Positions 12,108 to 41,735 of a stretch of DNA of 64,000 nucleotides are shown here, in pieces; the first letter of the stretch is position 1; every line of letters starts with the position of its first letter. Source of the DNA: Podarcis gaigeae (taxonomy: Eukaryota); the NCBI GenBank assembly GCA_964106915.2, contig OZ066916.1. One strand, written 5' to 3'. A program made the position numbers and the translations under genes. The notes under the pieces are model-generated. The model was not told the origin of the DNA. It did not search any database and worked only from the letters and a program-made list of their open reading frames with translations.

Positions 12108-12220
12108 GAATGCTACAGAATGGAAAGAAGTTTGATTCGTCCCGAGATCGAAACAAGCCTTTCAGGTTCAAGATCGGCAGGCAAGAGGTCATTAAAGGAT
12201 TTGAGGAAGGTACTGCACAG
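12108..12220 (+). CDS. FKBP1B: FKBP12.6 peptidyl-prolyl isomerase, exon 3 (exons 1-2 not found in window)
   Basis: ag|GA ATG CTA CAG ... GCA CAG|gt, 113 nt. Encodes (G)[41 protein letters not shown] and FEEG (not WEEG) distinguish FKBP1B from FKBP1A; SF3B6 is adjacent as in human. Confidence 0.96.
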
Positions 12221-13859: not shown

Positions 13860-13988
13860 ATGAGCCTAGGACAAAGAGCAAAGTTGACCTGTACACCTGA
13901 CATGGCGTATGGACCCATGGGGCATCCCGGAGTCATCCCTCCCAACGCTACTCTGATTTTTGACGTGGAGCTACTTAGGATAGAGTAA
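13860..13988 (+). CDS. FKBP1B: FKBP1B exon 4 (last coding exon)
   Basis: cag|ATG AGC CTA ... GAG TAA, 129 nt. Encodes [42 protein letters not shown]. Confidence 0.96.
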
Positions 13989-17784: not shown

Positions 17785-17874
17785 TTATTTTGGTGGGTCT
17801 GTATTTATTCCGTATTTCTCCTTCAGAAGTTTGAGCTGCTCTTCCTTCTTCTTTGTATCCATCTTTTGGAATGC
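17785..17874 (-). CDS. SF3B6: Splicing factor 3b subunit 6 (p14), exon 4
   Basis: ttacag|GCA TTC ... CCA AAA TAA. Encodes [29 protein letters not shown]. Confidence 0.97.
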
Positions 17875-19199
17875 CTGTAATAAAACAAAAATATTATTAA
17901 CAAAAGAACACGCTTTAGTCAAAACAACTTCATCCCATCTATTTATTTCAAAGCAATCTCACTTTTTTATCTTATGAATTTAAATGATAAACAGGCAACT
18001 TGCCTTGCTACCAAGAAAAGCAGACACTTTATAGTAACTATGTTCCAAAACACATTTATTTAATTCCTCAGGAAAGGTATTTGGGAAAGAACAGCTTGAC
18101 CCTAAATAATACTGCATAAGCAGCCTCATGTTGTGCCCATGCTGCTCTAAGATTTTCACAAATCAGGAGGTGGAACAGAGGAGAAATTGCTGGGTGTCCC
18201 CAGGCACATCTATTAACAGGCTTTTATAAGGCATCTCCTCCCATCATCTGTAGAAAGATTCACTTCCAAGTAACCAAGCAAAGAAGCTTTGTGAACTGGA
18301 TGAAAGAAAGGTGATCCCTTTCTTTGTTTTAAGGCATCAATGTGGTACAAGCAACTAAACTAACCCCCATTCCGCCCCCTCTTTTTTGCTCGCATTTTAA
18401 CTTCTGTGGGGAAAAAGCACATTTGTCCCATAGACAAGACAGATGCAGAGTTTCTAAGAGACCTATCAAGATCTGCACAGATTCAGTCAATCAATCAATG
18501 CACAGATTAAAAACCCTGACGTCTTTGTACCTGTTCTGAGCCTCAAGAGAGATTTGAACGTAAATGCCAGTTATGTTAGTAGCCAAAGCAGCTCAAAACC
18601 AAGATGCTAGACTAAGGAGTCAAACCATTCAAATCGTTTGCTCATTTTCTTTCTGTGGTACACAGAAATCCAGACCTTTCCCACAAGGTTATTTCAGAGT
18701 CTGCAACAGTGAGTTAAAGCATTGAAACAACAAGCCTTCATCCTGCCTGCTGGTTCCTCGTCCACACAGTGGGCTGGACAAACCTAACAGGTATGGAAAT
18801 CCTGTGAGATTGTGCTTTTTCCCATCCACTCTGAATACTCTGGCTGGGGCATTCAGTCAATACCTTGCTCTGAATACGCAGCCTGTATTGAACTTGTTCC
18901 GTTCCGAGTTTGATAAACACTTTTAAAGATTCAGGTTTTTTGATTTACACAAAATACAGATTCACTTCAATTTAGAGGATATTTGCTTTAGAGAATCTTA
19001 AAGGACACACAATCTGATTAGGAATAAACAGGACTGGAAGAGTCCTGTTTCCTTTATACAAGCCCCTGCTATTGAGGGTTAAAAAAGAGGAAACACGCCA
19101 ATTCACTTAAATTGAATTATTCCAGAACTGTTTTCACAATGATCTTATAAAAAAGTTAATCTCATGTTCAAATGTTTTAAGAAAAGCTCTTGTACTTGC

Positions 19200-19338
19200 C
19201 CTGTTTGCATTATAGTACAAGACAACAAGGTATCTGTTGCACACGTTGAATCCTGACAGATGATCACAAGCATTCTTGGCATCAAAGATATCTTCATAGA
19301 CAACGTAGGCTGTACCTCTAGTCTCAGGAGTATTTCCT
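19200..19338 (-). CDS. SF3B6: SF3B6 exon 3 (GC donor)
   Basis: 139 nt encoding (V)[46 protein letters not shown]; ends AGG|gcaagt. Confidence 0.96.
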
Positions 19339-19894
19339 CTGTAACAAAAAACAAAACAAAAAAATTAATGTTAGCAAAAGATAAGAAAAAAATCATGTTA
19401 ATATTTACACCTCTTTGTTGTAGTCACCGTTACATTCTGACCCTAGGAAAGGCAGTGACATCAATCCTATGCTGTCTCACTTGGAGGTGAACTCAATGAA
19501 ACTGTGCATTAGATTGGGCTGCGGAAGATTTGCCTATACAGTAACAATTTTCTCACAACAAATTGCTCCCTTTTGGGTCTATTAATTACCCCCCTGTAAA
19601 AAATCAAAACAAAAAACCCCAACCCAAACTCACACACAACCAAAACTCTCTACATAATTCTAATATTTTCACTCACGGAATATCCCCCATATTATCTATG
19701 TCTCTATGTGCATTGCCTATATTGGTTTGTTCCCCAGACAGAATTCAAATCAAGTGGGCTGATATATTTAGACTCCCAACTGCTTTATTTTACACTGAAA
19801 GCTGCAATAATGATCTGTCAGTCAACTAGAAAGCTACTTGACATAAGAAAATTCTAATTTCTATGCTTTGTTTGGCAACGTACAACAGACTTAC

Positions 19895-20013
19895 ACTCTG
19901 ATTTGTCGAATCGGTCCATATTTTCCAAAAATGTCATACATTTCTTCTGCTGTGATTTTATACGGTAAGTTTCTGATATATAAAATTCGATTCACTTCAG
20001 GGGGCAGACGGAT
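19895..20013 (-). CDS. SF3B6: SF3B6 exon 2
   Basis: 119 nt encoding [39 protein letters not shown](V); ag and gtaagt boundaries. Confidence 0.97.
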
Positions 20014-20593
20014 CTAGAGTCGATAAAAATTACAAACCAGAAGCAAATTAACAACATGATTTCTTTGTATGGTATGTAGATATGTAATCAGAGAATAATT
20101 TTAACTTTGGCAATGCAGAGGGTAGATGACCCTCAGGGGACCCTCAGGGGTCCTTCCAACTCTATGCAATTCTATGCAACTCTGCCTTGTTGCGAGCGCT
20201 ATCCAGGTCATCCCCAGCCAGCTTTGCTAACAGAAAAAGCACGACTCCTGGTCTCTACATCGGAGAAAGTTGGGAGGGTGTGTAGTTATGTGACTCCTGA
20301 TCCAAGGAAAAGAGCAACTATACAACCCTTAGAACACATTCCAAGGCAGCCCTGTATTGGGAAGTTTTTAGATGTTTTATTTCAATCAATCAATCAATCA
20401 ATCAATCAACATTTACTGGCATACAGAGAGGACAGGACCATACAAGTCGACGAATAAAAATTGGCATCTGTTCACAAGAGGAGATGCTCGGGGAGAAAAA
20501 CCATAGAGACCTAGTGGGGGTTTAATCTTTTATTGTGTTTTTATATATGTTGGAAGCCACCCAGAATGGCTGGGGCAAACTTGTCAGGTGGGT

Positions 20594-21164
20594 GAGGAAT
20601 AACAATAATGGTAGCCCCACAACATATGGGGGTGCCTCCCCAGAGTCCAAAGTAGGCTAATAATAATAATGCTCACCACAACATATAGGGGTGCCCCCAG
20701 AGCCCAAAGGCTAATTAATAATAACAATAATAATGACAGCCCCACAGCATATAGGGGAACCCCCTGAACCCGAAGGCTAATAATTAATAACGGCAACCCC
20801 ACAATATATGGGGGTGCCCCCCGAGCCCGAAGGCTAATAAATAATAATAATAACGACAGCCCCACAACATATGGGGTGCCCTCCAAAGCCCGAAGGCTAA
20901 TAATAATGGCAGCCCCACAACATACAGGGGTGCCCCCTGAACCCAAAGACTAATAATAATAATGGCAACCCCACAATATATGGGGGTGCCCCCCCGAGCC
21001 CGAAGGCTAATAAATAATAATAATGACAGCTCCACAACATATGGGGTGCCCCGCAAAGCCCGAAGAAGGCTAATAATAATAATAATAATAATGGCAGCCC
21101 CACAACATATGGGGTGCCCCGCAAAGCCCGAAGGGGGCTAATAATGATGATGATGATGATGATG

Positions 21165-21197
<33 letters not shown>

Positions 21198-21232
21198 GCA
21201 GCCCCACAACATATGGGAGTGCACCCCCCAGC
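20594..21232. repeat. Minisatellite, about 10 units of about 60 bp, in SF3B6 intron 1
   Basis: Recurring unit GGCT(AAT)nGGCAGCCCCACAACATATGGGGTGCCCCCnnAGCCCGAA. Confidence 0.92.
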
Positions 21233-21660
21233 GGACCCGCTTCACGCCCTTCCCACTTGACGCGCCTTCCTGAATGTCCCGAAAGTGGAGGAGGAAGAGG
21301 CGCAGAACCAGACGCGGGGGCAGAAAGGAGAAGCGGAGTCGGAAGCGAGGGAAGGGCAGCCGACGTGCAAAATGGCCCCGCCACGCACAGGAGAAAGGGA
21401 AAGGGGGGTCCCAGCTTACATTGGCGCGTTTCGCCGCTTGCATCGCCATGGCGGCGGCCTTGTGTGGGAAGCTGCTTCCGCTGCTGAGGGAAACGGGAGC
21501 GTCGCCGGCGCCGCGACTGACCGAGCGAGAGGGCCGCGAAGCCTCAGGACAGCCACAACCGCGTTCTGCGCCTGCGCCGGAAGAAGGCGCGCGGGGAACA
21601 TCCGCTTCGCCTCGCCTCTCTCCCGGATATGACGTCTGACTTCCTGCGCTCTGCCATAAG
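21230..21660 (-). promoter_or_regulatory. SF3B6 CpG-island promoter
   Basis: High CpG density around exon 1; NRF1-like TGCGCCTGCGC near 21567, TGACGTC near 21630 and ETS-like ACTTCCTG near 21639. Confidence 0.75.
21420..21449 (-). CDS. SF3B6: SF3B6 exon 1, coding part
   Basis: Kozak context GCCGCCGCCATGG; encodes MAMQAAKRAN followed by gtaag. Confidence 0.97.
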
Positions 21661-22113
21661 AGTGGCTGGGGATGGGGTGGATAATCTGGAGCGGATCCAG
21701 TTGCTGCTGATTCTCCGCCCCCCTTCTTCTTCTTCTTTTGAAAAAGCTGCTTAAGTCCAAAGCTCAGCAGCCAAAGGAGGCAATTTACTGCAGGAGAAAA
21801 AAAGTTAACCTCTAAAGGGGAGGGAGGAAGTCCATGGGAACTTATGTAATTCTTGTTTTGTTTTGTTTTTGATGTAAAAATTGAGATTTCGTCGATATCT
21901 GATCATTGTCTCTGATTGTATTACCTGGGCAGCCTGGCCATTCTTTTGTGTTTCAGTTAAAAAAAAAATAAAGCGATACAGAAAAAGAAGGAAACGGGAG
22001 AGGGAGAAAAACAACAATAACACATATAAAAACGAAAATATACAAAAAAGGGAGCAATATATGATATTCCCATACATTCTTGTATAAATTGGTGTAGTGT
22101 TATTGCCCAAGTG

Positions 22114-22249
22114 CAGAAATAAGCAAACTCGGCCTGCCAGGTGTTTTGAGACTACAATTCCCATCATACCTGACCACTGGTCCTGTTAGCTAGGGGTGAT
22201 GGGAGTTGTAGTCCCAAAACATCTGGCGGGCCGAGTTTGCCTATGCCTG
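22114..22249. mobile_element. Palindromic hAT MITE nested in an L1 3' end
   Basis: Long hairpin; 8-bp TSD CCCAAGTG / CCCTAGTG. Confidence 0.82.
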
Positions 22250-22259
22250 CCCTAGTGCT

Positions 22260-22645
22260 TATTTAAATGCTAATAGTCTACTAAATTTTGCATAAACTCA
22301 TTCCAAATGCTATCGTATTTATCCATACAGAGTCTGCGCCTGTAAGCAGTCTGTTCATAAATTGCCATTGATGTCATATCAGTCTATTGATTGAAGGGTA
22401 TAGCATATCTTTATTTTTCCAATTCCTCAGTATCAATCTTTTGGTCACCGTTAAGGCATGAAATATCCATTTCCGTTGTCCCGTTGATAATTCCCATACT
22501 GCAGGTATATAGTTCAATAAAATATCCGCTGAAAGATTTAACTTTTTCTGCACAGTCATATAGTTACACAGTCCAGCACTTTCTCCCAAAGCTTGTTCAG
22601 TAAAGAGCACTGTGCAAACATGTGTTTCAGAGAGACATATTTCAG
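22260..22645 (-). mobile_element. L1-clade LINE ORF2 3' fragment
   Basis: Minus-strand translation LKHMFAQC ... LLNYIPAVWELSTGQRKWIFHALTVTKRLILRNWK; related fragment at about 9790-10060. Confidence 0.78.
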
Positions 22646-22865
22646 AAAGCCTGAAATGATATGGTTTAGCCACAAGAGGGTAGCGGCAGAGTGTATTGTC
22701 GATTAAATGCTTTGGAAGTATTATTCCGCCAGGTGGCGCTGGCCCACGCCTGCACGGGAAATTTTGGATTTCCGCCTAAAGTCAACAGCACAGACTTACA
22801 ATAGCATAATGATAGACTGATAACTCCATTGATTGAAGATGAGATAGTCTGGTTCCTTAGATGCA
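22450..22865 (+). repeat. Direct repeat copy A (about 415 bp)
   Basis: Colinear, high-identity match to 35302-35723. Confidence 0.92.
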
Positions 22866-24059
22866 CAGGAAGCAGAAGATGCCACAGATGTTTTATTCCT
22901 GCCTCTCAGCCTTACATGTCTGAAACAAAAAAGAAGCAGAAATAATCCACAACAAGCCTCTGTTGCCCAGTATGAGCCAGGGGTCTACATACCCTCAACA
23001 CTGACTTATATTTCTTCACATGTGGCTTGAGGACCATGGGACAATATGTCCATAGATCTCCTTCCCATAGGGGATTGAATGTGAAAATTATTGTTACTGT
23101 GTTCATTAGTCAGGATCTTTATTTGTTTGCAGCAATGGGATTACTATTACAATCAAACCAGCCTTTTATGCAATTTTATTTTATGAATCTGAAATAAATA
23201 GGGAAGGGAGCAAATTGAAACCCCTCTCCACACATTACTAATAACCCCGTGTAGTATTTATGGGTTTTGTTTTTTAAAACATTTTATTAACACATACTGC
23301 ACTACTTCATGAATTTAGATTCATGGGCTTAATATTTTCTGTACGGTTTTTGCATGCTTGAAAAACAAGGTACTGCTTATTAATGAACAGATAGATTGCT
23401 TTTCAAAATTCCTCCATCAAATGAGCATTTAAAAACTTTGTGATTTAAAACTTTTATCCTATGATAAAAGAACTGCTTGGAATGACATAAATCTTCAACA
23501 CATGTCTAGAAATAATAATTATTACTAAACATTTAGAAAAATCTAAAATTTTCAAAGCATTGCACACATATTGATAGTGAAAATGGCCCTTGCCCCCAAG
23601 CTTGCAATGATACACATGATACAAAAGGGAAAAGGAATGGGGAGGGAAGAGGAAAGCAAACATTTGAAGCCAATGGATGGGGCCAGGCCCAGTGGTGGAG
23701 GAACCCTCTCTGGCACCTGGGGCGGCATAGCCCGTGCAAACTGCGCGTGTGCGGCATCTCGCATGTGTGCACTCCTTATGGAATGCCGCACATGCGCAGT
23801 CCATATGGGCTGCCACTTGAGCAGTATCCCATGCGGACTGCATATGCCCTTGGCCGTTCTACAGCTGGGGGAGGCAGGGGCCATCTTGTCACCCATCCCA
23901 GAGTGGCACCTGGGGCGGCCCCCCCCCTTTCTACACCCCTAGCCAGGCCAGGCCCTGGCCACCCCTGGTCTTCTTCTCCAATATGTGAACTGCATTTTTG
24001 TGTAAGTCCATCTATGTTGGTACCTTTTTCTTAGAAGTGCTTCTTGTTTTTCAATCTAG

Positions 24060-24182
24060 GACTTCAAGGCAAGGGTAAGCAACATCTCCACAATTAAGAA
24101 ATTCTTGGAGCCAGGCAGCCAGAGGAAATTTGAATTAGACGACAAGGCTCTTCAAGAGATCAAGAAGATTTTCAACATCTGA
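24060..24182 (+). pseudogene. Orphan last coding exon of a second alpha-class GST paralog
   Basis: tcaatctag|GAC TTC ... ATC TGA encodes DFKARVSNISTIKKFLEPGSQRKFELDDKALQEIKKIFNI*, homologous to the exon at 34249-34368. No upstream GST exons found between here and the SF3B6 promoter. Confidence 0.88.
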
Positions 24183-24442
24183 GAACATCTGCTATGAAGA
24201 TCACTACAAATACTGGCATGATTTTAACAAATCTGTGTGACTTCTCTCTTACCAGTTGGAGGATTAACAGTGTCGTCCTATTCATGTCTATTCAGCATTA
24301 GTTCCATTTGAATTCAGTGTAGCTTACTTCTGGGTAAATGTAGGTATAGGATTGGAGCCTAAATCCGTAAAATAGTATTTCCTCTTGGTTCCATAGTCTC
24401 AAATGCTTTTGATTGCAAACTCTTGAAAAATGTAGTAGATGA

Positions 24443-26114
24443 CTTCTTCCGGGTCGGCGCCATCGCCGAATGGCGGGCTCCCTCCGAGCTCCGGAGGGAG
24501 CCGGCTTGGCAGGGGCTGGGTCCTACCGCACCGGCGATGCGGGGACCCTTAAAAACCACGGCCAGATTGAGGCCGTGGACATGGAGACTCGGCTGGCACC
24601 GTTAGCGCCCTCCCGACTCGTGAAGGAGCCTTTTTAAAGGCTACGGATCGGGTGCCGGGGAGAAGCGTGGTGCTTTGAGTTCTCTGCTATCCCTGCCGAG
24701 CGCAGCCGCATGCCATCCGGCGGAGAGCGCTGACTTCTTCCATTGAAAATTCGGCTCTAAAGAAGAACCCGTGAGTAATTGGAATATGGACTAAAAAAAA
24801 GGGGATAAATTTTTAAAATTCGGAGCGAACGGGGGAGGTGGAAAAAAGGAAGTCAGCCTACCCCTAAATTGTAGAAGAGCCAAAACAAAGGACTGGACAA
24901 CTAAGATCGAGTGTAACCTTATCTTGCCGAATCAGCAACTTCGCGAGGGAAAATTATAAGATTGAGCTGGAGGAGAAAAGTGGAATTGTTTTTTTAAAAA
25001 AAAAAGCAACCCCCCCGGAATCCCTGGAGCGATTCGTGAAACTGCCTGGAGAAAAGTGATGGAGGTTTTGACAGCTGTCAAAGAGCTGTCAAAAAGGAAG
25101 ATTAAAATAGAGACTTTGTAATAAGGACTTTGCCGGTTATATTTGTTACAAATTGAATACAAACTGTTTTAAATATCGGACAACAAGCTACTTGGTCTGG
25201 TGGATGTGATTCTGGAAGGGAACTTTGTTATTGCAATCCACCTAGAGGAGCCGAGGGACATTGCATGTGTTTTTCACAGGAAATGTGAACTGTTGAATGG
25301 AACTTTCAATCTCCTGGGAAACTGCAGGAATGGAACACTATTTTGTCTACAGAGGTCTACACACTACAGGAAACAATGGAACTATTTGTTGGAAAATGAA
25401 AGGAACATGATGTAATGTTTTGCTTCAAGAATAACAAACCTCTGCAGAGACACTAGAAACTTTTGGAAAAAGAACATTTCTGTGGGAGAACAGAGAAATA
25501 AAAAGGAGGAGAATGATTGATAAGAACAAGGAAACAACAAGAATTGGACAGAACTGGGGGAACATTTGGGATATTCAGGTTTGACAAGCTTATGGATACA
25601 AAATTGGAGTTTTTACTCCTGGATATAAAAACCTGGATAGAAGAAATGGGCCCTTATTTGATAGACTCCTTCTACGATTGGACATCCGTAATTAAAGACT
25701 GGCAAAGAACCTGAGGGACATAGTGTAATGTGGGAACTCCAGGAAGATATTAGAAGTGGAGGGATAGGTGAAACGCAAAGGGGAAAGAGGGGAGGGAAAA
25801 TTGGAATCCAAAGGCTGTAAAATTACTATTTATATTTATCTTATTTCCATCTGTACTATGTTTGAAAGGGGGAAACTCGTTGAAGGGTATAGATCGATCT
25901 TAGGGGATGGGAATTTGGATAAATTGGGTTATTGATGAAGAGTGTAATTTGGGGATAAGAATTTGTTGAATTTAATTGCTTATTTGGAAGATTTGGAACA
26001 CAAGAGGGGGTAGGGAGGGGAAGTCCTAGTTATTGGCAATAGATTGGATTTAATTCGTTTTGATTTGTTCTAATTTGGAAAACCTTAATAAAAATTATTA
26101 TAAAAAAAAAAAAA
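24443..26114 (+). mobile_element. Non-autonomous L1-type retroelement, 1.67 kb
   Basis: TSD GAAAAATGTAGTAGATGA at 24425-24442 and 26115-26132; CpG-rich 5' end; AATAAA plus A-tail; no recognisable endonuclease or RT ORF. Confidence 0.85.
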
Positions 26115-26390
26115 GAAAAATGTAGTAGATGAGAACTCTTTTGTGAAGATTCTGAGGCCTCCTTTAGATATTAGTCTAATGCAACCTGCCGAAACTTGGT
26201 ATGATACCTTCCAAGGGTTTTGGACTACAGTTCCCATCAGCCACAGCCAGCATGGCCAACAGTCAAAGAATGAAATTGCCAGAGCCAACAAACATTTGAT
26301 ATTGTGCAAGGATTTTTTGCAGCCGGAACTCACTGGAACTGAATTCCACCACCTCTCTGGTTTATTCCAGAGTTCAAATGCTACTGAGTA

Positions 26391-26495
26391 GAGGATCACC
26401 ATAATGGCACTGTGTAAATCCACAAAAGGAGATGATGATAATACGGTGTGATGGTACAATAAAATGAAATAAAGCATTCTACAGCGTTTGTACTT
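26391..26495 (+). other. 3' UTR end and poly(A) signal of the orphan GSTA paralog
   Basis: Matches the intact gene's 3' UTR (aatggcac.gtgtaaatccacaaa and taaaatgaaataaagcattctaca, compare 34437-34556); AATAAA at 26468-26473. Confidence 0.8.
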
Positions 26496-27114
26496 CAGTG
26501 CCATGTTTTACTTGAGTAGTCAATAACATGTCTGGTCTGTCATGACTAGTTCCTGTTGTGCTTTGCGTAGATGTGACGGGATCTGTGTGGTCCTGCTGGA
26601 TTAGAGGCAAGCAAAATATATCCTATTAACGTACTTCCTGCCAGAAAATGAGCTGTTTCCATAGCCTTCTACAGCAATTAGACTGACCAGCCATAGCAGC
26701 AATTCTTTACCAGTCCACCATGCTATCCTCAAGGAACATTCTTCTCAGTTTTATGACAGCAACTTCAACTGTCACAAATTTTTCAAAGCCAGACATCAAA
26801 TATGTGATTTTCACTTGATCATCCAGATCAGGTATCTTACATAACAAATCAAGAATAATTTTTGAATTGCCTGTAGAAATCCAGTTTTGCATACCTTTAA
26901 TTGTAGTGATCTATTTGGCCCAACCCCCGCCAAAAGGTGGGTAGGACCAACAGGGAAGCCCTGTGTAGTTGACTTTTTTCTGTATTTTGTGGCTAGCAGC
27001 TGCAACCAGAGACTGCAGTGGCCTCCTGCCCAGTTATACAAAGGTTTCAGTTGAATATACACTACTAAGACCAGGAATGTTTGCCCTCAGTGCAGCTGTA
27101 CAGATACAATAAAC

Positions 27115-27369
27115 CGAGTTGCATCATGTTACGCAAGCGTGAGACAACCTTTCCCGTTGTGAATTAACTTTGCGTGACTGATTTGTTGTAGGTGAAAAGT
27201 CTCACGAAAGGCAGAGTAAGTGTTTTTCTATTTGCAATAGGGAGTTTCTGCTACAGATAAGCTGTTCTCTCAGAAGGTGGAGCTTCTGAGCTTTTATAAC
27301 CCTGAGCCACACAAGTTCGGGGCTCACTCTGCTTGAGAAGAACTTCCACTTGTTCAGGACTTGCAGCAG
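27115..27369 (+). promoter_or_regulatory. Putative GSTA promoter and non-coding exon 1
   Basis: TATA-like TTTATAA at 27293-27299, donor CAG|gttagt at 27369/27370, upstream XRE core TTGCGTG at 27170-27176 and bZIP-type sites. The first coding exon has an acceptor upstream of its ATG, so a non-coding exon 1 is required. Confidence 0.55.
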
Positions 27370-28032
27370 GTTAGTATTCTAAGGTAGACGATTGCTTTGG
27401 AGAGTCATTGGTCAAGAGCAACACCCTGGACAGAGGAGTAGTGCAGGGACAATTTTCAAAGACCTCACCTTTGCCCAAAAGTCTTGCTCTTCTTACCCGC
27501 AGGGTACTAAAGGTTTGTGGGTTGGGGAGGGGGGATACTGTAATCCTCAGACCTGTAATCCTCAGAGCAGAGACATTTCCCTTTGGACAGACCAAAGGCA
27601 GGAGCTGGGCAGTGGGCAGAGGTCTAAAAATGATATGGGGTTGGTCTTTGTTGCACCTCAGAGGAAAAAGAAATCTTGGGTAAGAATGGGAGAGAAATTA
27701 GATTCATTTAAAAAATAGTAACTCACCAAATTTCTTTTCCCAAAAACATAGCTATCCCTTGAAATTTGCACTGCTGTTCTCCAGCCAAATAATGGGTAAA
27801 AACACATATGGTGAGGTAAAATGTGCATATAAATGCATATATTATTGAAAAGAATGTAGATAATGGGTGTTGTTATCCAGGGTTGAGGAGGGTGCAGATG
27901 CCATCCAACTGTCTTAGGGACTCCACTCCGGATTTGCTTGGGGTTTACTCCTTAGCCTTTTCTTCCTAGGGCAATGGAGGTTTAGGGTCAGAGGCTACCT
28001 CCTCCTAGATGGGTTACCTTCCCAGATTGATG

Positions 28033-28542
28033 TGGAAATATCTAAATTAATGGTTCTTATTACCCTGAGTAGTACCGAGTTAAAAACAAAAGAGGAATGT
28101 AAATGGGTAAAATTGGTGGTAATTACAGCCAGACAGGTTATAGCGAGTAATTGGAAAAATGCAGAAGAGCTAGGGGTGAACCAAGGGAGGAAAAAACTGA
28201 ATAATATTATAATTTTAGAATACCTAACTCTGAAGATACATAGAATGAAAGGGCTTAAGGTCAGTGAGAAAGAGGAGGATTGGTTTGAGAAGATATTGAA
28301 TTATTTGGGTAGGTTTGAACAATTTGGGGCAATTAAAATGTTAAAAGTTAAATAAACCTTGTGGAGGGAGGAGTGTTAAGGTATATAGAAGTGTATATAT
28401 GGTTGATTTGAATATGTTATTATTGAATATTATTGAATATGTATATTATTGAATATATATACCCAATGTATCAGCCACCTGGGGGGTGGTTTCACTGTTT
28501 GTGTTTTGGTGGTTGATAAAAAATAAAATATTAATTAAAAAG
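28033..28542 (+). mobile_element. 5'-truncated L1-clade LINE
   Basis: ORF2 C-terminal-like ARQVIASNWK ... KILNYL, A-rich tail, imperfect 17-bp TSD at 28016-28032 and 28543-28559. Confidence 0.75.
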
Positions 28543-29144
28543 ACCTTCTCAGACTGATGAGCTCCACCTGCCCCTCACTTCCCTCTACAGCATGTGCAGA
28601 AACTGCCTTCTTGACCCTTGGACCCACTATTGGTCTCATCCCTCAACCTGCCAGAGCCCATCCTTGCATGGAGGGAAGGTCCCTAACTCACATGGGTTTG
28701 AGACCCATCAGCTATCCTTACCTGGTTGAGCCAGCCAGTCAGAGCCATTTCCCAGGGTGTGGCCCCTGTCACATGCTGGCAGCTTCTAGGAGCCACAGGA
28801 GAGTGCTGAGTGCAGAGTGGGAACCAAAGATAGACAAACAACCCTAGAAGGAGCATGATGTGTCTCTCACCAGTGGCAACTGGGGAAAACAGGTTGAGAG
28901 AAGGGTGTGTCCATGTAAGGAAATCTGAAACAGTTTTAAGTTAGAGGTGGTGCTTCAGATGTGATTCATCACTACAAACTCCCATCATCCCTGGCGGTTG
29001 GCCATGCAGGAAAGCCATGTGCCTGAGGAGATGAGAGGCAGCTGATGGCAATGACAATGGTGCGAGTACGAGGGGGAAGTTACAATTTTGTGGCTCTGGG
29101 AACATGGACCGTGGCTGTTCAAGAGGGGGGTGATAGTCATAGAT

Positions 29145-29400
29145 CATGGGTAGGCAAACTAAGGCCCGGGGGCTGGATATGGCCCAATTGCCTTCTAAAT
29201 TCAGCCCACAGACGGTCCGGGAATCAGCATGTTTTTACATGAGTAGAATGTGTGCTTTTATTTAAAATGCATCTCTGGGTTATTTGTGGGGCTTGGGAAT
29301 TCATTAATTCCCCCCCCCCCCAAAAAAATATAGTCCGGCCGCCCACAAGGTCTGAGGGACAGTGGACCGACCCCCTGCCGAAAAAGTTTGCTGACCCCTG
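29145..29400. mobile_element. Non-autonomous hAT element
   Basis: TIR-like ends CA.GGGT.GGCAAAC; 8-bp TSD TCATAGAT. Confidence 0.82.
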
Positions 29401-29648
29401 TCATAGATTGTTGTGGTTTTTTTTTAACTCTTCCTATTTTATCTGTGCAATAATATGCTACATCTGCTTGTGCTCTGTGATTATGAAAAAGCGTTTGATA
29501 AAAAATAAACCAGAAGGCTTGCTGTAAGCAATCACCAGAGCACCATTTTGAACAGTTGTCCTGCTCTGCAGTGGTTTCCCTATCAAACATGACCTCTCAA
29601 TCTCTCTCTCTGTCTCTCATCATAACAGGAAAGCAAACACTTAGGAAG

Positions 29649-29735
29649 ATGGCTGGGAAACCTAAGCTTTACTACTTCAATGGAAGGGGCCGAATGGAAA
29701 GCATAAGGTGGCTGTTGGCTGCAGCAGGAGTCGAG
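29649..29735 (+). CDS. GSTA: Glutathione S-transferase alpha class, first coding exon (exon starts 29629)
   Basis: Encodes [29 protein letters not shown] then gt; catalytic Tyr9 and Arg15 present. Paralog number cannot be assigned. Confidence 0.95.
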
Positions 29736-29917
29736 GTTTGTTTGTCTTCTCTGACAAAGCACCTTTCCCCCACCCCCCAAAAAGAATGAAGGGAACTGTT
29801 GTTTTTCCAGCATTCTTATATTTCAGACAGTTTCCAAATTTGGGTCCAGCATTATCATTTGTGAGGGAGGTGCCTGCTTCAGGCGGGGGATTTTATCTAT
29901 CCTGGAAGGGGCAGCTA

Positions 29918-30175
29918 CCGTATTTTTTGCTGTATAAGACTCACTTTTTCCCTCCTAAAAAGTAAAGGGAAATGTGTGTATGTCTTATGGAGCGATGCAG
30001 GCTGCGCAGCTATCCCAGAAGGCAGAACAGCAAGAGGGATTGCTGCTTTCGCTGCACAGCGATCCCTCCTGCTGTTCTGGCTTCTGAGATTCAGAATATT
30101 TTTTTTCTTGTTTTCCTCCTCCAAAAACTAGGTGCGTCTTGTGGTCTGGTGCATCTTATAGAGCGAAAAATACGG
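29918..30175. mobile_element. Tc1/mariner MITE, family D (CCGTATTTTT TIR)
   Basis: TA|CCGTATTTTT ... AAAAATACGG|TA; inverted copy at 46486-46709, relatives at 52583-52747 and about 7269-7580. Confidence 0.82.
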
Positions 30176-30246
30176 TAATTGATGAGTTATTGTCATTATT
30201 ATTGTACTTTTGCAGCTAAGTAGGGGGGGGAGGAAACATGATTGTG

Positions 30247-31113
30247 TGGACAGGCGGAGTCCCCCAAACCCTGGGTGTCCCCCATATGGAATAACGACTC
30301 AAGACAACATGCTATGGGATTAAAATTGGCCACAACTTTATTATGTTTCAGATGTGGGTAGACCTTGACTCAGGCATTGGGTGTTTATCCCTCTCAGTCC
30401 CCCACCGGGGATCTGGGGAACATCAGGGTTATCCAATGGGGGGGGGATGGGCTGGCTCTGGAGAACATATGTTGAAGCAGAGAGAGCCTGCCCCTGTTAC
30501 GCCACCGTCGCAGGGGAGAGCAATGACAACCTCCAGGTGCACGGCCAAAGCCTCCCCTCTGAACAACCCCTTTAACGGGGAACCCTGGTATCGCCGCCGC
30601 AAAGAGGAGGGGGGCGTGGGTCACCGCTGCACGCCCCCCCCATTTAGGGAAGATAGACTAAAGGATCCTGACCAAGGCCTGATACTGCCAAAGTTGTGAC
30701 GTTTTGCTACAGGAAAGGCAAAACATGCCAATGCAGGAGAATTTCTTTGCGACCCTTCAACAGCGACCTTGACGCAGCAGTGCCCACATACCTGTGGAGA
30801 AAAGGTTAACCTGCAAAAGAAGTCTTAACTGAGGGTGGGTAGGGTGGGAGAAGCTCTGGAGCCAACTGACAATTCCCGGGTAAGATCCTCCCCCTATTGT
30901 ATGGGCAGGTGGTCCCTCCCCCTAACTGGCCTGATCACCTTGGCAACGCCTTCCCAGGCGGGATTGGACAACTGGCTGAGGTAGGCAGAGATCTCCAGGT
31001 ATCCCACCTGGGGAAGGCCAAGCCAAGCCTGTGCTAATGGTGCCACATAGGGTCCAGGGGGCTTCATGTGACCACACAAAGGGCGCCCCCCCATTTAATG
31101 TGGGGAGCCATCA
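30247..31113 (-). mobile_element. Probable solo LTR in a GSTA intron
   Basis: TG...CA termini, 5-bp TSD TTGTG (30242-30246 and 31114-31118), minus-strand AATAAA about 90 nt from the 3' end, GC-richer than flanks. Confidence 0.6.
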
Positions 31114-31164
31114 TTGTGGGATTTACTGCTTCAAGTGCTAAAATGATATGACTAGCCTGTAGTA

Positions 31165-31523
31165 CAGTGGTACCTCGCAAGACGAATCCCTCGTAAGACG
31201 AAAAACTCGCAAGATGAAAGAGTTTTTCGAGTTGCTTCGCAAGACGAATTTCCCTATGGGCTTGCTTCACAAGATGAAAATGTCTTGCAAGTTTGTTTCC
31301 TTTTTCTTAAAACCGTTAATACCCAGGGTGCATTCAGGGGGTGCAGTTGCAACTTGACTTCGAGGAGCAACTCATAGCACCCGGTGTGGTAGCCTTTTTT
31401 GAGGTTTTTGAAGGCTTTGGTGATTTTTGAAGCTTTTCCAAAATCCGTGCTTCATAAGACGAAAAATTCGCAAGACGAAAAAACTCGCAGAACGAATTAA
31501 TTTCATCTTGCGAGGTACCACTG
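31165..31523. mobile_element. Tc1/mariner MITE, family B (CGCAAGACG subrepeats)
   Basis: TIR CAGTGGTACCTCGCAAGA; TA flanks. Confidence 0.85.
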
Positions 31524-31718
31524 TACTTGATTTGTGCATGGGAAACATTTGTTGTTCTGTCCCAGACAGAGAAAATTATTGGGCGGGCCGGCCCAGAATT
31601 TGGCTGTGAAAGGGGAGTTTTCATCAAATTTTGAAAACTTGAAAGGCCCTGTGTCATTTTTGGAGCCTGAAATTATTTCATGAGACCCTTGAAATATTCT
31701 GCCTCTTTTATTTTTTAG

Positions 31719-31770
31719 TTTGAAGAACAATTAATTGAGACAAAAGAATATCTAGAAAAATTAAAGAATG
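31719..31770 (+). CDS. GSTA: GSTA coding exon 2
   Basis: 52 nt encoding FEEQLIETKEYLEKLKN(G); ttttag and gtgagt boundaries. Confidence 0.93.
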
Positions 31771-32283
31771 GTGAGTATGTTATCTGAATATCAGTGGGAC
31801 TGTCTTCTAGTACAGTAAAGCCTTATAGTCTTAATAGCAGGGGTTTTCAAAGTGGACTTGTTTCTCCAGTTCTGCATTGTGCACACTTTCAGGCAGGAAT
31901 ATGTGTCAATACACAGTTGTGATCTGGTTATATTGCATTTTTCTCTCTTCTTTGAAAGAAAAGAGAGTTTTCCAGATACCCACAACACATACCACTCAAC
32001 TCTGCATTGTGCAGAATGGTTTGCTTGTTTTTTAGCTGGAGAACAGAAGTAGCTTAAATAACATACAAAACTAGTTTCCAATGTGTGATTGCTGTACTAA
32101 TTTAGCACATGTTCTGCAAAAGGGTTTTGAGGGACAAGCAGAGGCAAACATGATTATCGCAAAGGCACAATGTAAAAGTAAAGTCTCAAAATCAAAGCAT
32201 GGCTTGGGAGATGCTCCTGAAAATTTAATTTCCATAGTAATTACCTGGGAGGATGGACTGATTTTTCATTTTCCTTTCACAAG

Positions 32284-32416
32284 GTGGAGACCTGCTCTTT
32301 CAGCAAGTGCCCATGGTGGAAATGGATGGGATGAAGATGGTGCAGAGCCGAGCTATTCTCAACTACATTGCCGCCAAGTATAATCTCTCCGGGAAGGACA
32401 TGAAGCAGAGAGCATG
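32284..32416 (+). CDS. GSTA: GSTA coding exon 3
   Basis: 133 nt encoding [43 protein letters not shown](W). Confidence 0.95.
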
Positions 32417-33055
32417 GTACTGTAACACTCCTTTAAGTTTGGTTACTAAATGCATACTTTGGTTTGCTGTACATGATATAAGATCTTCTTTGGTCTGTCA
32501 TATGATCTACTGATGAGTTATGAGTCAGCATGTTTCATCTCTACTGTCAGATTGGGCAAGAAAGGGTACAGTATGAGATAATTTGACCGCCCAGTCCCAA
32601 CAAAGTTCATGTGGACTGGTTCATTAGAAATCAATGAAGTTTTATGTAATCCCAATAGGAGATTGGGAGGTCGTTGTCCCTTCCCAATGTTTTTTTTTTG
32701 GGGGGGGGGTTGTTGCAAATGTATAAAATTGATTTTTGATATAAGGCTTTCCTTATAAAAGGTGTAGCTGGTGAAGATCACTATAATGTCAAATTATAGG
32801 GGCTTTTGTTGCATAGAGCGAGGCTCTTTCCAGGGAAAATGCCCTTTCTGCAACATACAGAATCATTGTACTTGTTTTTCTGCTGGGTCATCACACATTT
32901 TTGCCTGTGACACTACTGCCCAATTCCCCCACAAGGCTTTGGCTCTGCATTATCATAATTAGTACTATTGCTGCTGCTACTACTGCTGCTATCACTACTG
33001 TTTTTCTTATTATTACCTGAGTATGAGAAAAGGAAACACTGTCTCTTTCAAATAG

Positions 33056-33197
33056 GATTGATATGTATTGCGAAGGTGCTATGGATCTGAATGAATTGAT
33101 AATGATGCTTCCCTTCAAGCCAGCTGACAGCAAGGAGAAGGAGTTTGCAAACGTTATTGAAAAAGCCACCACCAGATACTTCCCAGTCTTTGAAAAG
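33056..33197 (+). CDS. GSTA: GSTA coding exon 4
   Basis: 142 nt encoding IDMYCEGAMDLNELIMMLPFKPADSKEKEFANVIEKATTRYFPVFEK. Confidence 0.95.
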
Positions 33198-33677
33198 GTA
33201 TGGGGCGAAGGAAACTTACAAACCTTTTAACACAACAAAGTCACCTGTGCTCAGCTGGAGTTGGCAGCTGGTAATTTTGATAGGACTGCTTGTCTCATCA
33301 GAAATCATTTCCTTATTCCTTGTATTTTCCAAGCTTCTGAGCTAAAAGTAAAAAAAGTAAAACAAAAAAATTAGCTGTGTGAGAGAAGATCAGGAATCAC
33401 ACACAGTGTTCGTTTACCATGTGAACTCTGATCTCAGAATCTGCCCTGCCTCATTGAAACATGACAAGCAGTGGTTTGGGAAGAGGGAATGTAATGATCA
33501 AACTTCTCTTTCTTAGCCAGCAGTTTGTTAGAAGACATGAATCCGAACTGATACAAATACTCTCGATCTCCTGATACAATATAATCTGGGCGCGTGATAG
33601 TCAAAAGTGGTTCAGATATAGATTCTCCATTTTGTGTATGTACCTGAAGTACTCTTCAAACATTTCCTGCTCTATAG

Positions 33678-33809
33678 GTCCTCAAAGATCATGGACAAAA
33701 TTACCTGGTAGGAAATCAGCTCAGCAGAGCAGATATTCAATTGCTTGAAACCATTTTAATGGCAGAAGAGCTGAAGGCTGATATTCTCTCCAAATTCCCT
33801 CTTTTAAAG
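33678..33809 (+). CDS. GSTA: GSTA coding exon 5
   Basis: 132 nt encoding VLKDHGQNYLVGNQLSRADIQLLETILMAEELKADILSKFPLLK. Confidence 0.95.
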
Positions 33810-34200
33810 GTAAGCATGCTTACTGAAGCATAAGCAAAGTTCTAGTATGGCACTTTTATTCTTTGCATATCTAAAACACTATCGTCTCTGGATTTCTATT
33901 GCAAAAAGTCTAAATCACACAGGAGGCCCACATTCATGGATAAGCCTTCTGTGAATTAAATTTAGACACAAACAGGTAACCTACCTACGATTATAGACCT
34001 GCAATGGAGCTCAAATGTTGACCTCCCTCTCCAAAGGTGCATGCCTGAAATAATTGGGTTTAGTGTATGTACAAAGTTTGAGTACATATAAAGTTTATCA
34101 CTTGTAGTTTCATTATTGACTATGAAATCATAGTAACCGTAAGCAGCAAATGATTATTTGGGGATGCCACCATTTCTCCTTTTCTCTACTAAAATATTTT

Positions 34201-34201
<1 letters not shown>

Positions 34202-34244
<43 letters not shown>
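34202..34244 (+). repeat. (CT)n microsatellite forming the GSTA last-exon pyrimidine tract
   Basis: About 21 CT units directly before ctag|GCC. Confidence 0.95.
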
Positions 34245-34247
<3 letters not shown>

Positions 34248-34248
34248 G

Positions 34249-34368
34249 GCCTTTAAAGAGAGAATAAGCAACATCCCAACAGTGAAGAAATTTCTGCAGC
34301 CTGGTAGTCAAAGAAAACCACCAACAGATGAAAAGGCTATTGAAAAGGCAATGAAAATTTTCGCCTAA
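34249..34368 (+). CDS. GSTA: GSTA last coding exon
   Basis: 120 nt encoding [39 protein letters not shown]. Total CDS is 666 nt (221 aa); AATAAA at 34541-34546. Confidence 0.95.
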
Positions 34369-35301
34369 ATCGTGGCTGAGGATCACAAATGATGCACTAT
34401 TGTATTCACAGGCAATGGGCAAAAACTGAAATGGGACCACAATGGCACAGTGTAAATCCACAAAGCTACAGTAAGAACCAAAATAACTAACAGAACAAAA
34501 GGAAGTGGTTATAATATTGTGCCGCACTACACTAAAATGAAATAAAGCATTCTACAACTTTTGTATTCTGGTTGTTTTAGTTCCAGTATGATGTCATTTA
34601 CATTAATCTTAAACAGCAGGGGAGCACATAAGCAGCCTTGTCATAGGTCTTAGGCCCTTTACCATATTTCTTAATCAGATGGTTTAAGATGTAACATTGG
34701 TTTATATATTTAGCTAAGTGTGCATTTATGCTTATTTATTCTATGACTGAGACCTTAAAATTCTCGTAACAATCCCCCATTTGGGGCAATAATTTAACTA
34801 AAATTGTTGCCCCACTAAACAACCTGATGTCCACTCTTCCCAAATGTTGGAATGGGATGTGTTTATGTAACCCTGAGGAGACTTGCATGTCAGGTCTCTT
34901 AAGCCTATTCACAAGTGTAGCAGTTGGACATAGGATTCTGTATCATATAAAATAACACTATCTTGTTTTGTTCTATTCTTAAAATACTGGTGGCATTGGT
35001 GGCATTCAAACTCTTTGAGAGAAGCCTTCTCTACCTTTTCACTTTTAAAATGAGGGTCTATGCTTTACATTCAGCAGGAAGGTCCATTTAAAATGAAATA
35101 TGATCAAGGTCCATTTAAAATGAAATATGACCAAATAATTGTGGGGTGGTGGAATGAAAGCAGAATTTCTTGCATGAAAAAAACACTGCATATTTCCCAG
35201 AGAATGGGTTGGTATAAAATATAGTATAAACAGTATAAAATTTACCTGGCGCCTTCATTATACACCTTTAGGCGCCAGGCAAAAATGTCCTTTTTTAAAC
35301 T

Positions 35302-35723
35302 GTTAAGGCATGGAAAATCCATTTCCGTTGTCCCGTTGATAATTTCCATACCGCAGGTATATAGTTCAATAAAATATTCTCCGCTGAAAGATTTAACTTT
35401 TTCTGCACAGTCATATAGTTACAAAGTCCAGCACTTTCTCACAAAGCTTGTTAAGTAAAGAGCACTGTGCAAAAAATGTGTTTCAGAGAGATATGTTTCA
35501 GAAAGCCTGAAATGATATGATTTAGTCACAAGAGGGTAGCCGCACAGTGTATTGTCGATTAAATGCTTTGGAAGTATTATTCCGCCAGGTGTCGCTGGCC
35601 CAAGCCTGCGCGGGAAACTTTGGATTTCCGCCTAAAGTCAGCAGCACAGACTTACAATAGCAATAATGATAGACTGATAACTCCATTGGTTGAAGATGAG
35701 ATAGCCTGGTTCCTTAGCTTGCA
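35302..35723 (+). repeat. Direct repeat copy A'
   Basis: Colinear, high-identity match to 22450-22865. Confidence 0.92.
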
Positions 35724-35735
35724 TAGCTCAGTCGG

Positions 35736-35778
<43 letters not shown>

Positions 35779-35911
35779 ATATTTTATTAAGTTTAACAAT
35801 AAAAAACAAACAACCACAGGGAAAAAAAAAAAAAAACACAGGGAAAATATAAAACATAACAATACAAGGTTTCACAATACAAAAATACAAACATTTAACC
35901 TAACAAGGGAT

Positions 35912-36235
35912 CAGTGTTTTTCAACCTTTTTTGGACAAAGGCACACTTGTTTCATGAAAAAAATCATGAGGCACACCACCATTAGAAAATGTTAAAAAAA
36001 TTAACTCTGTGCCTATATTGACTAGATATAAAGTAATTCTCTTGAATAGGAATCAAATAAACACAAAGAAAGTATTTTATAATTACTTTATTATGAAATA
36101 GTAAGTAAACAGAAATATGAAAAATTATAAAATACTTTATTTTTAAATCTTTCGAATTTTTCAAGTTTTCCCACGGCACACCAGGCAACATCTCGCGGCA
36201 CTAGTGTGCGGCGGAACAGTGGTTGAAAAACACTG
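35912..36235. mobile_element. Non-autonomous hAT-like element
   Basis: TIR CAGTGTTTTTCAACC ... GGTTGAAAAACACTG; TSD not clear. Confidence 0.75.
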
Positions 36236-36354
36236 GCCTAGATGACCCTCGTGGTCCCTTCTCTGTCTCACACACCCTGACAAAGTTAGCTGCTGCCTGC
36301 CCATAGGGCACAATGTGTAAAGTGCCAAATTTTACAAAGTGAAACAGTATAAAG

Positions 36355-36604
36355 TTCGCCTGGCGCCTTCATTATACACCTTTAGGCGCCAGGCAAAAAC
36401 GTTCCTTTTTAACCAGGTCTTTGGTTGATTTGATTGACATTCTATGCCCTTTTAAAATCTGATTCCTTTTGGGGCAGGGAGGTGTTATTGGGTTGTTGTT
36501 TTTATTTTGATTATATATATATAGTGGTTTTATATTTTGATTTTGTTCTGTGAACCGCTCTGAGACCTCCGGCTATTGGGTGGTATACAAATGTAATCAA
36601 TCAG

Positions 36605-36636
<32 letters not shown>
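36355..36636 (+). mobile_element. L2-like LINE 3' end with (TCAA)n tail
   Basis: GTGAACCGC.CTGAGACCTCCGG-type terminal stem followed by a simple-repeat tail. Confidence 0.65.
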
Positions 36637-36638
<2 letters not shown>

Positions 36639-36959
36639 CCCACCCTTGTCACTGAAAGATCTCCAAGTGACTTACAGAATATATAAAAATATACACACTG
36701 CTGGTGTCCTGCTTCTTACACCCCCATGCCAGACGACTTGTTTCAATTATCCAAAAGAAGTGACTTCAAAAATGATAACATTATCCAAAATATTATCAGA
36801 AATTTAGAAAATATAACAAAAACAGGGCTTTTTCCCCTCCTGGGGAACTCAACCGGCACCTTTAGTGTAACAACTTCATGGGCGTGTACCAGCACCGTTT
36901 TTCTTTCCTAGAAGAAAAAAAGCACCGACCAAAAAACTTAATATGTATAAAACTTGTCT

Positions 36960-37240
36960 TTGCGCGTGAACGCCAAGCGAAGAAGTCTAGCGAGGACATT
37001 CCCATGCGACGACCCGCCAGCTGGCCCGCATGTGCACCTCTTTTAGTTTTTGTATGTCTAGGGTTATAGCGAGGGGAGGGGCGGGGCGGGGGCGGGTCCG
37101 CGGCGAGCAGAAGGCAACATGCCGGCTGGGAGGCAGCGGCTCTTGGAAGCCTCCGCGGGGAACGGAGGCAGCGGCGGCCAATGGGTGATCGTTGCGCCAG
37201 GTAAAGAACTCCTTGCAAAGAGGCGCGGGGAGAGGGCTGC
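36960..37240 (+). promoter_or_regulatory. RNASEH2B CpG-island promoter with GC boxes
   Basis: Stacked GGGCGG motifs at about 37078-37096, just upstream of the ATG; CpG-rich. Confidence 0.7.
37119..37200 (+). CDS. RNASEH2B: Ribonuclease H2 subunit B, exon 1
   Basis: Encodes MPAGRQRLLEASAGNGGSGGQWVIVAP(E) then gtaaag; lies in the CpG island; phase 1 fits exon 2. Confidence 0.85.
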
Positions 37241-41043: not shown

Positions 41044-41627
41044 TATGAGCTGCCTGCTTGTGCACACTGCTTGAGTCTTCCTTCCCTCTTCCTTTCCTGG
41101 AGCAAGGAAACAAACCACAGAGTTGGCTGGCTTGACATTCTGTCCAAACCAGTGTTTGTGTTCCAACTCCCCGCCAAAGCTTATTTCTTCTCTCTACATT
41201 TAGCATTACATCCAGATGTGTTCCCTGCCAAACGATAGTTAAGCTTCCTAAACCATGGGTTGGCACAGGAGTTGTCAACCATTTTGGACCCATGGGCACA
41301 TTTGCAAAGCAGGGAAACAATGGTGACCCCCCCCCCACTTCACCCGTTCGTGCACAGCAGCCAATTGTTAGCTACAACATAATGCTTCTTTGCAGACTAA
41401 GGGGACTCAGCGGGTACCTGGGAAGGTCTCTGTGGGTGCATGAGTTGGCAATCCCTAGTTTCAGTGTGATGCTTAAACTTTTCTATTTGTCTGAGTTTCT
41501 TTTGCACTTAAGGTTTGCAAACAGTCCGGCATTCTTCTGAGAGTTTACTTTCTTCTTTTGATTGGGGGTGGCTATTGGCAGCTTCAGAAATCCGAAACCA
41601 ATATCTGTGTCGTCATCGTTTTAACAG

Positions 41628-41735
41628 GACAAGCAGCCCTTTACTTGTTCGGAAGTGATGGCCGTCAGGTGTTTGAAGTGAAAGCTTTTCATGAAGAATA
41701 CCGGTCGTGGTTTATCGGCGAAGCTGTTCAACATG
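41628..41735 (+). CDS. RNASEH2B: RNASEH2B exon 3
   Basis: 108 nt encoding QAALYLFGSDGRQVFEVKAFHEEYRSWFIGEAVQH(D). Confidence 0.94.

Follow-up and report, generated by a model that had tools for sequence, protein, structure and literature searches.

A probable young last-exon copy of an alpha-class glutathione S-transferase gene, captured by FKBP1B read-through in wall lizards of the genus Podarcis

In read-through (conjoined) transcripts, the penultimate exon of one gene is usually joined to exon 2 of an intact gene downstream, and inversions with staggered breaks leave duplications at evolutionary breakpoint regions. In a gecko, such regions are reported to be repeat-enriched (bioRxiv 10.1101/2023.04.01.535199). 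Alpha-class glutathione S-transferase (GST) genes lie in tandem clusters in 21 mammals, with 24 of 105 loci being pseudogenes (7 of 12 in human), and partial genes account for 22 of 448 mammalian GST loci (PMC6643896). Here, we analyzed a stretch of 64,000 nucleotides (nt) from Podarcis gaigeae (assembly GCA_964106915.2, contig OZ066916.1), which as a whole is called the window, and focused on a solitary last coding exon of an alpha-class GST (GSTA) gene, the orphan exon, which lies between SF3B6 and an intact GSTA gene. It covers the C-terminal segment that in GSTA1 is described as containing a mobile helix (PMC4147586). We found no published account of this locus in the open-access literature.

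The element is most likely best filed as a non-processed partial GSTA duplicate that acts as a read-through acceptor. We regard it as probable that the terminal exon of a functional GSTA gene was recently copied to this site, a synteny break, and that the copy has been captured by read-through from the upstream gene FKBP1B. The exon forms an open frame of 40 codons followed by TGA, without any disabling change, and it belongs to the following group of features:

24024..24059, plus strand: acceptor of the orphan exon, a polypyrimidine tract and AG (24058-24059), phase 0
24060..24182, plus strand: orphan GSTA last coding exon, equivalent to residues 183-222 of a 222-amino-acid (aa) alpha-class GST
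24183..26495, plus strand: 3' untranslated region (UTR) belonging to the orphan exon; AATAAA is present at 26458 and 26468
24443..26114, plus strand: retroelement-like insertion of 1672 nt, with a GC-rich 5' end, AATAAA at 26087 and a poly(A) tail

The acceptor, the open 40-codon GSTA exon and the homologous 3' end with AATAAA, all of which the initial annotation had recognized, were confirmed by the sequence itself, by tblastn and by shuffling. The orphan exon and the last exon of the neighboring GSTA gene (34249-34368) share the acceptor phase 0 and are identical at 23 of 39 aa and 79 of 117 nt. The spliced neighbor protein matched the orphan exon in tblastn (E value 2e-10, 62% over 37 aa), and the local score of 122 far exceeded the maximum of 39 in 1000 shuffles; thus, the similarity is not a matter of chance. 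The end of the 3' UTR (26422-26492) is also homologous to that of the neighbor (34495-34565; 71 nt, 79%, E value 2e-9), and the proximal UTR (24183-24445) showed no homology to the neighbor's UTR (score 18 versus a shuffle maximum of 25). Similarity to full-length GSTs begins at the exon boundary, and since the intronic acceptor is retained 5' of it, the exon should be of genomic and not of retroposed origin. Its derivation from a tandem alpha-GST array, as had been proposed, is supported. The 40-aa peptide alone matched no Pfam family. Just 5' of the acceptor (23690-23960) there is a GC-rich element that contains a 29-nt inverted repeat.

No upstream exons accompany the orphan exon. In six-frame comparison of 21400-24059, each of the six neighbor coding exons scored no higher than the maximum of 30 shuffles, and tblastn of two near-identical full-length relatives (P0003 and P0006, see below) on the window recovered only the orphan exon and the neighbor's six exons; the earlier statement that no other GST exon is visible at 21.7-24 kb therefore holds. 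The region 21660-24059 had no homology to the last intron of the neighbor (score 27 versus a shuffle maximum of 31). The exon-1 peptide slightly exceeded the shuffle maximum, taken from 10 shuffles each, in 1-21400 (42 versus 38) and in 34600-64000 (37 versus 36); these matches were taken as noise, with tblastn E values of at least 1.4. On the evidence within the window, the orphan exon is not a GST gene. The thioredoxin-like N-terminal domain and most of the helical domain (exons 1-5) are missing from it within the 64 kb, the catalytic domain is absent both from the 40-aa piece and from the chimeric protein P0002 described below, and it appears from these sequences that no GST enzyme can result.

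Complete proteins ending in this exon do exist elsewhere. Among 11 candidates, six longer proteins matched the orphan peptide, and 5 of the 125 named proteins examined carry the exon. The identity was 39/40 for P0003 (Podarcis raffonei, 222 aa), 38/40 for both P0005 (P. muralis, 222 aa) and P0004 (a 166-aa isoform from P. muralis), 37/40 for P0006 (Zootoca, 222 aa), and 29/40 for a more distant Rhineura GST. P0003 possesses both the GST_N and GST_C domains of Pfam, and its best 33 PDB matches are all alpha-class GSTs by name (1vf1 'Glutathione S-transferase 3' first, GSTA1-1 next). When 29 named proteins, chosen from 165, were placed in a tree together with the neighbor, P0003, P0005 and P0006 formed a lacertid-only clade (100/98), whose sister was a second Zootoca gene (99/95). 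Thus, the parent gene has not been lost: the initial annotation had suggested tracing the parent of the peptide, which was found as complete proteins in P. raffonei, P. muralis and Zootoca, and these do not support its view that the gene itself was cut out of the array or deprived of its 5' part. With regard to age, Ser at exon position 10 is common to the orphan exon and the Podarcis full-length proteins, whereas Pro occupies this position in 108 of 109 other named GSTAs, the Zootoca ortholog among them. This derived Ser suggests that the exon split from its parent after the divergence of Podarcis and Zootoca, unless gene conversion occurred or the exon is the parent's own. Against the neighbor, the nonsynonymous divergence (dN) was 0.27 and the synonymous divergence (dS) about 2.8, with synonymous sites near saturation. 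The sequences hence point to an old paralogy with the neighbor and a young fragment, and the earlier idea of an old paralog stands for the former relationship (79/117 nt) and fails for the split from the parent, which is probably recent. In Zootoca, the sister paralogs P0006 and P0012 are identical at 45/45, 45/47 and 43/44 residues in exons 3-5, but exons 2 and 6 reach only 13/17 and 28/40; this mosaic suggests gene conversion or exon-specific divergence.

The link to FKBP1B comes from P0002, which is listed at NCBI as 'peptidyl-prolyl cis-trans isomerase FKBP1B isoform X2 [Podarcis muralis]' and has 106 aa. Its first 66 residues are unmatched in the window and are followed by the orphan exon (39/40), with the junction exactly at the exon start. 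The relevant exons of the upstream gene, which we take to be FKBP1B from the context given in the initial annotation and from the NCBI name of P0002, are as follows (exons 1-2 are left of the window):

12108..12220, plus strand: third coding exon of FKBP1B, 113 nt with a phase-1 acceptor, left out of the chimeric model
13860..13988, plus strand: FKBP1B last coding exon, 42 codons and stop; first downstream AATAAA at 14536

Residues 38-66 of P0002 admit a shifted frame that opens with an ATG at a distance of exactly 85 nt from the junction. If exons 3 and 4 of the window are added, this gives 85 + 113 + 129 = 327 nt, i.e., 108 codons plus stop, which is the length of FKBP1B. The agreement indicates that P0002 joins the FKBP1B exon-2 donor, located left of the window, to 24060. 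In the P0002 model, an upstream gene on the same strand and a donor joined at the exact exon boundary are present, as in a read-through chimera. Such a splice would bypass exons 3-4 as well as the AATAAA (14536), and the transcript would run through SF3B6 in antisense. In the FKBP frame, translation continues for 11 codons into the orphan exon before a stop, giving 40 residues in all; the 106-aa database product uses another frame. RNA support of P0002 is presumed, on the assumption that spliced reads underlie such NCBI models. The exon-3 donor of FKBP1B (12220) is in phase 0; splicing of exon 3 to the orphan exon would thus preserve the frame and give 66 + 40 residues. Two protein searches had no product of this kind among their matches.

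FKBP1B is the only annotated splice partner of the orphan exon. Among the 37 matches with an E value of 0.001 or less in a search of 50% clusters, only P0002 was below 1e-10, and no other FKBP1B-GST chimera was seen; a word search for chimeras covered only 11 candidates, and absence there is weak evidence. The initial annotation had instead considered that the exon might terminate a divergent transcript from the SF3B6 promoter. On the plus strand of 21560-24050, the best donor-like site scored 7.9 (23369) with a matrix trained on 12 window donors (training scores 5.9-12.0), and it is preceded by AATAAA at 21967, 22516 and 23193, which together with the annotated partner speaks against that proposal.

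It appears that P. muralis has two copies of the exon. At exon position 28, P0002 and the window have Asp, whereas both P. muralis GSTs (P0004 and P0005) have Asn; P0002 and P0004 are assigned to contigs of identical size (122,509,924) from the same single source 'ncbi'. The residue difference and the equal contig sizes together imply two exon copies within one P. muralis assembly. Under the RefSeq convention of ordering isoforms by length, an X2 of 106 aa would fit an X1 that is the 108-aa FKBP1B, with no 222-aa isoform.

The genes around the orphan exon are arranged in the order FKBP1B (plus strand), SF3B6 (minus strand), orphan exon, intact GSTA, RNASEH2B (plus strand) and soluble guanylate cyclase (minus strand). 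Further features are as follows:

17785..21449, minus strand: SF3B6, coding exons 21449-21420, 20013-19895, 19338-19200 and 17874-17785, 125 codons
27292..34545, plus strand: intact neighbor GSTA, 221 aa, with a TATA-like box at 27292-27299, a noncoding exon to the donor at 27368, and AATAAA at 34541
29649-29735, 31719-31770, 32284-32416, 33056-33197, 33678-33809 and 34249-34368, plus strand: neighbor GSTA coding exons
22447..22860, minus strand: left copy of a 419-nt direct repeat, 93.6% identical to 35299-35717
35299..35717, minus strand: right copy of the 419-nt direct repeat, just beyond the 3' end of the neighbor GSTA

The SF3B6 model is one of 26 open exon combinations and was chosen by consensus splice sites and the SF3B6 length of 125 aa; the gene name is presumed. 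Its CpG island is located at about 21200-21650, with an observed/expected ratio of up to 1.15 at 21400-21600. In the 125-codon combination, the third intron (19200, minus strand) has an apparent GC donor, and intron 1 contains a tandem repeat beside the CpG island (20598-21231; units of ~55-65 nt with (AAT)n spacers). For the neighbor GSTA, the six-exon splice was the only open combination found, and its last intron has 439 nt. The protein is identical to P. lilfordi P0158 at 213 of 221 residues, the two pair in the tree (99/93) in a clade with Rhineura, Tiliqua and Elgaria (100/100), and the predicted 50-residue N-terminal extension of P0158 matches 26720-26841, ~250 nt past the orphan AATAAA. 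A second near-identical copy of the neighbor in one species was not found among 8 matches of 24 candidates, a set in which clusters hide close copies. About 820 nt separate the orphan AATAAA from the neighbor's TATA-like box. Such native-like tandem packing suggests that a break in the last intron would carry the neighbor along with its upstream region intact. RNASEH2B was recognized by Pfam Ydr279_N on 41627-41734.

In human and chicken, the FKBP1B-SF3B6, GSTA and RNASEH2B/guanylate cyclase blocks are either unlinked or widely separated, and the GST piece would therefore lie at a junction of synteny blocks. The interval 34600-37100, between GSTA and RNASEH2B with guanylate cyclase, is a second synteny break, as the latter two genes are presumably on another chromosome than GSTA in both species. 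A lizard single-cell gene table (PMC12917300) names RNASEH1, RNASEH2A and RNASEH2C and not RNASEH2B, TP53I3, DLEU7 or WDCP; it lists FKBP1B and SF3B6 without coordinates and is uninformative for gene order. No matches for the locus genes were found in the supplement of PMC12860763.

The two copies of the 419-nt repeat bracket the orphan exon and the neighbor, and homology stops at the same right-hand base in both. Ends shared in this way suggest a single insertion that was copied in the course of the rearrangement, which is a lead. The translated repeat resembles the end of an L1 ORF2, as in an L1-like 3' fragment; Pfam confirmed the L1 label in none of three regions (22374-22772, 27918-28352 and 25173-25412). 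No target-site duplication was detected around the left piece (no match of at least 7 nt), nor any target duplication around the whole cassette, where only 2 overlapping low-complexity 11-mers were seen. A second pair of repeats with shared ends is near the cassette edges (35228-35298 and 36342-36412, 91.5% over 71 nt), and both pairs are possibly templated pieces of one complex rearrangement. A palindromic element resembling a miniature inverted-repeat transposable element is present inside the L1-like fragment (22105-22258).

The orphan 3' UTR is interrupted by the 1672-nt insertion (24443-26114), which is flanked by exact 18-nt direct repeats (24425-24442 and 26115-26132), i.e., a target-site duplication. 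The distance from the stop codon to the AATAAA is 2285 nt and would be 595 nt without it. The longest frames of the insertion are about 80 codons, and Pfam gave no match to the longest internal one. By its anatomy, the insertion looks like a long interspersed nuclear element, either non-autonomous or internally deleted. Its AATAAA provides the orphan exon with an earlier poly(A) site, and the insertion is a possible species marker.

We propose the following course of events. After the Podarcis-Zootoca split, the GSTA tandem array may have been broken inside the last intron of the lacertid-specific alpha-class GST, and the segment composed of the last exon, the 3' end and the tightly packed next GSTA gene would then have become attached next to SF3B6, on its promoter side. 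The intact parent would be located at another site of the same chromosome and would have been spared through staggered breaks or because the break affected a tandem copy. If the acceptor and the poly(A) signals still work, some FKBP1B transcripts would splice coding exon 2 into 24060. The sequences directly show the exon, the lack of companion exons, the near-identity to intact genes, the chimeric model and the frame arithmetic, whereas the two copies in one genome, the RNA support of the model, the rearrangement, its date and the lack of function are inferred. Selection is not necessary to explain the open frame. In a neutral simulation, the frame and the AG survived with a P of 0.87-0.77 at 1-2% divergence; at 1-2 aa differences, openness is expected by chance, and thus the 'still open' state that the initial annotation emphasized is no sign of selection. 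The dN/dS ratio against the neighbor was rejected as evidence, because dS is saturated and the ratio reflects selection while the exon sat in working genes.

Several observations weigh against this interpretation. The two-copy argument depends on a single residue and on the equality of the contig sizes; the full-length P. raffonei protein has Asp28, so that copy and parent cannot be separated in that species, and the P0003 cluster has 8 members, among which a full-length Asp form of P. muralis may be present. The parent locus is known from proteins alone, and, with 4 differences in 166 residues, P0004 and P0005 suggest that more than one full copy may exist. The chimera is represented by one protein of one species. 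The 93.6% identity of the 419-nt copies does not exceed that of other repeat-family pairs in the window (91-94%), and the two may be independent insertions. At 3.2% divergence per copy, the event age suggested by the flanking repeats, the probability of at most one change was 0.21 for the window copy and that of no change was 0.05 for the P. muralis copy.

These points leave some room, possible though doubtful, for an exon that is in real use across Podarcis, either as the last exon of a nested gene or as a recruited FKBP1B terminal exon. In either case, gene nesting or exon recruitment would have taken place at a chromosome breakpoint recently enough to be dated. Nesting, by which the exon would be the true last exon of a GSTA gene whose exons 1-5 are left of the window, with FKBP1B and the essential spliceosomal gene SF3B6 inside an intron of more than 24 kb, perhaps since a recent insertion, seems rather unlikely. 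The near-identity to the full-length P. raffonei protein (39/40, including Asp28), the slight over-conservation of the exon and the position of FKBP1B exons 1-2 already beyond the window edge would suit it, as would the contigs: the parents share chromosome-length contigs with the neighbor's orthologs (Zootoca) and with P0002 (P. muralis). However, Asn28 occurs in both P. muralis GSTs and Asp in the FKBP1B-linked copy, the transcript would need to read past all acceptors of FKBP1B as well as its poly(A) signal on the same strand, whereas the neighbor's equivalent intron is only 439 nt, and none of the best 120 of 1571 matches to P0003 was a GST-to-FKBP chimera. We consider it unlikely that a duplicate is in use as a selected FKBP1B terminal exon, which might lower FKBP12.6 output, produce antisense RNA over all of SF3B6 or yield a new, overprinted 106-aa protein, or as regulatory DNA for the neighbor GSTA. 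An annotated chimeric model does exist, the acceptor and frame are intact in at least two genomes with one change between them, the unchanged P. muralis copy is improbable under neutrality at 3.2%, and the orphan exon is tightly packed with the neighbor's 5' end. On the other hand, only 1 of 125 named proteins is such a chimera, P0002 belongs to no Pfam family, the atlas recognition of 1896 is below its mark of 2300 (best score 0.79, a lead at most), the FKBP frame soon stops, and a 1.7-kb insertion has been tolerated in the UTR.

The version of the initial annotation, an old relic that lost its 5' part and now terminates a divergent transcript from the SF3B6 CpG promoter, is very unlikely in our judgment. 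The CpG island is ~2.4 kb upstream and the strand is right, and the site at 23369 is a usable donor; but an old neutral relic at 10% divergence would carry ~8 changes (probability of at most two, 0.01), intact parents exist, the three AATAAA come ahead of the first good donor, and the annotated partner is FKBP1B. An assembly artefact, with the GSTA cluster collapsed or mis-joined, is most improbable, although near-identical paralogs (P0003-P0006 and P0012) make the cluster collapse-prone. The window contains no N, P. lilfordi P0158 is collinear with 26720-34365, and a different genome, that of P0002, which differs at exon position 35, also has the exon following FKBP1B in the same orientation; misassembly, named at the outset as a possible refutation, therefore has little force.

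The favored reading, a young copy captured by read-through, would most likely amount to ordinary birth-and-death debris of a GSTA cluster plus a read-through isoform. The isoform places P0002, a protein with a GST tail, under the misleading name 'FKBP1B' in databases, and the locus could serve as a marker of a young, within-Lacertidae rearrangement breakpoint that is datable and typeable across wall-lizard assemblies. If instead the exon were nested or recruited, a new terminal exon or a two-gene nesting would have arisen within a few percent of sequence divergence, which would bear on how chimeric genes start.

In comparison with known systems, the orphan exon resembles the lacertid GSTA clade (P0003, P0005 and P0006) in being equivalent to their residues 183-222 (37-39/40) and differs in having no exons 1-5 in the window. 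Like the pseudogenes of tandem GSTA clusters, it is an array fragment directly upstream of an intact paralog; unlike them, it has no inactivating change, lies beside SF3B6 instead of deep within the cluster and has an annotated splice partner from an unrelated gene. As with breakpoint-associated duplications, the small duplicated gene part and the repeats are located where synteny blocks meet. As in read-through transcripts, an internal donor of the upstream gene skips the last exons and uses a downstream acceptor, whereas here exon 2 is joined to a solitary terminal exon, across an intron that contains a housekeeping gene in antisense.

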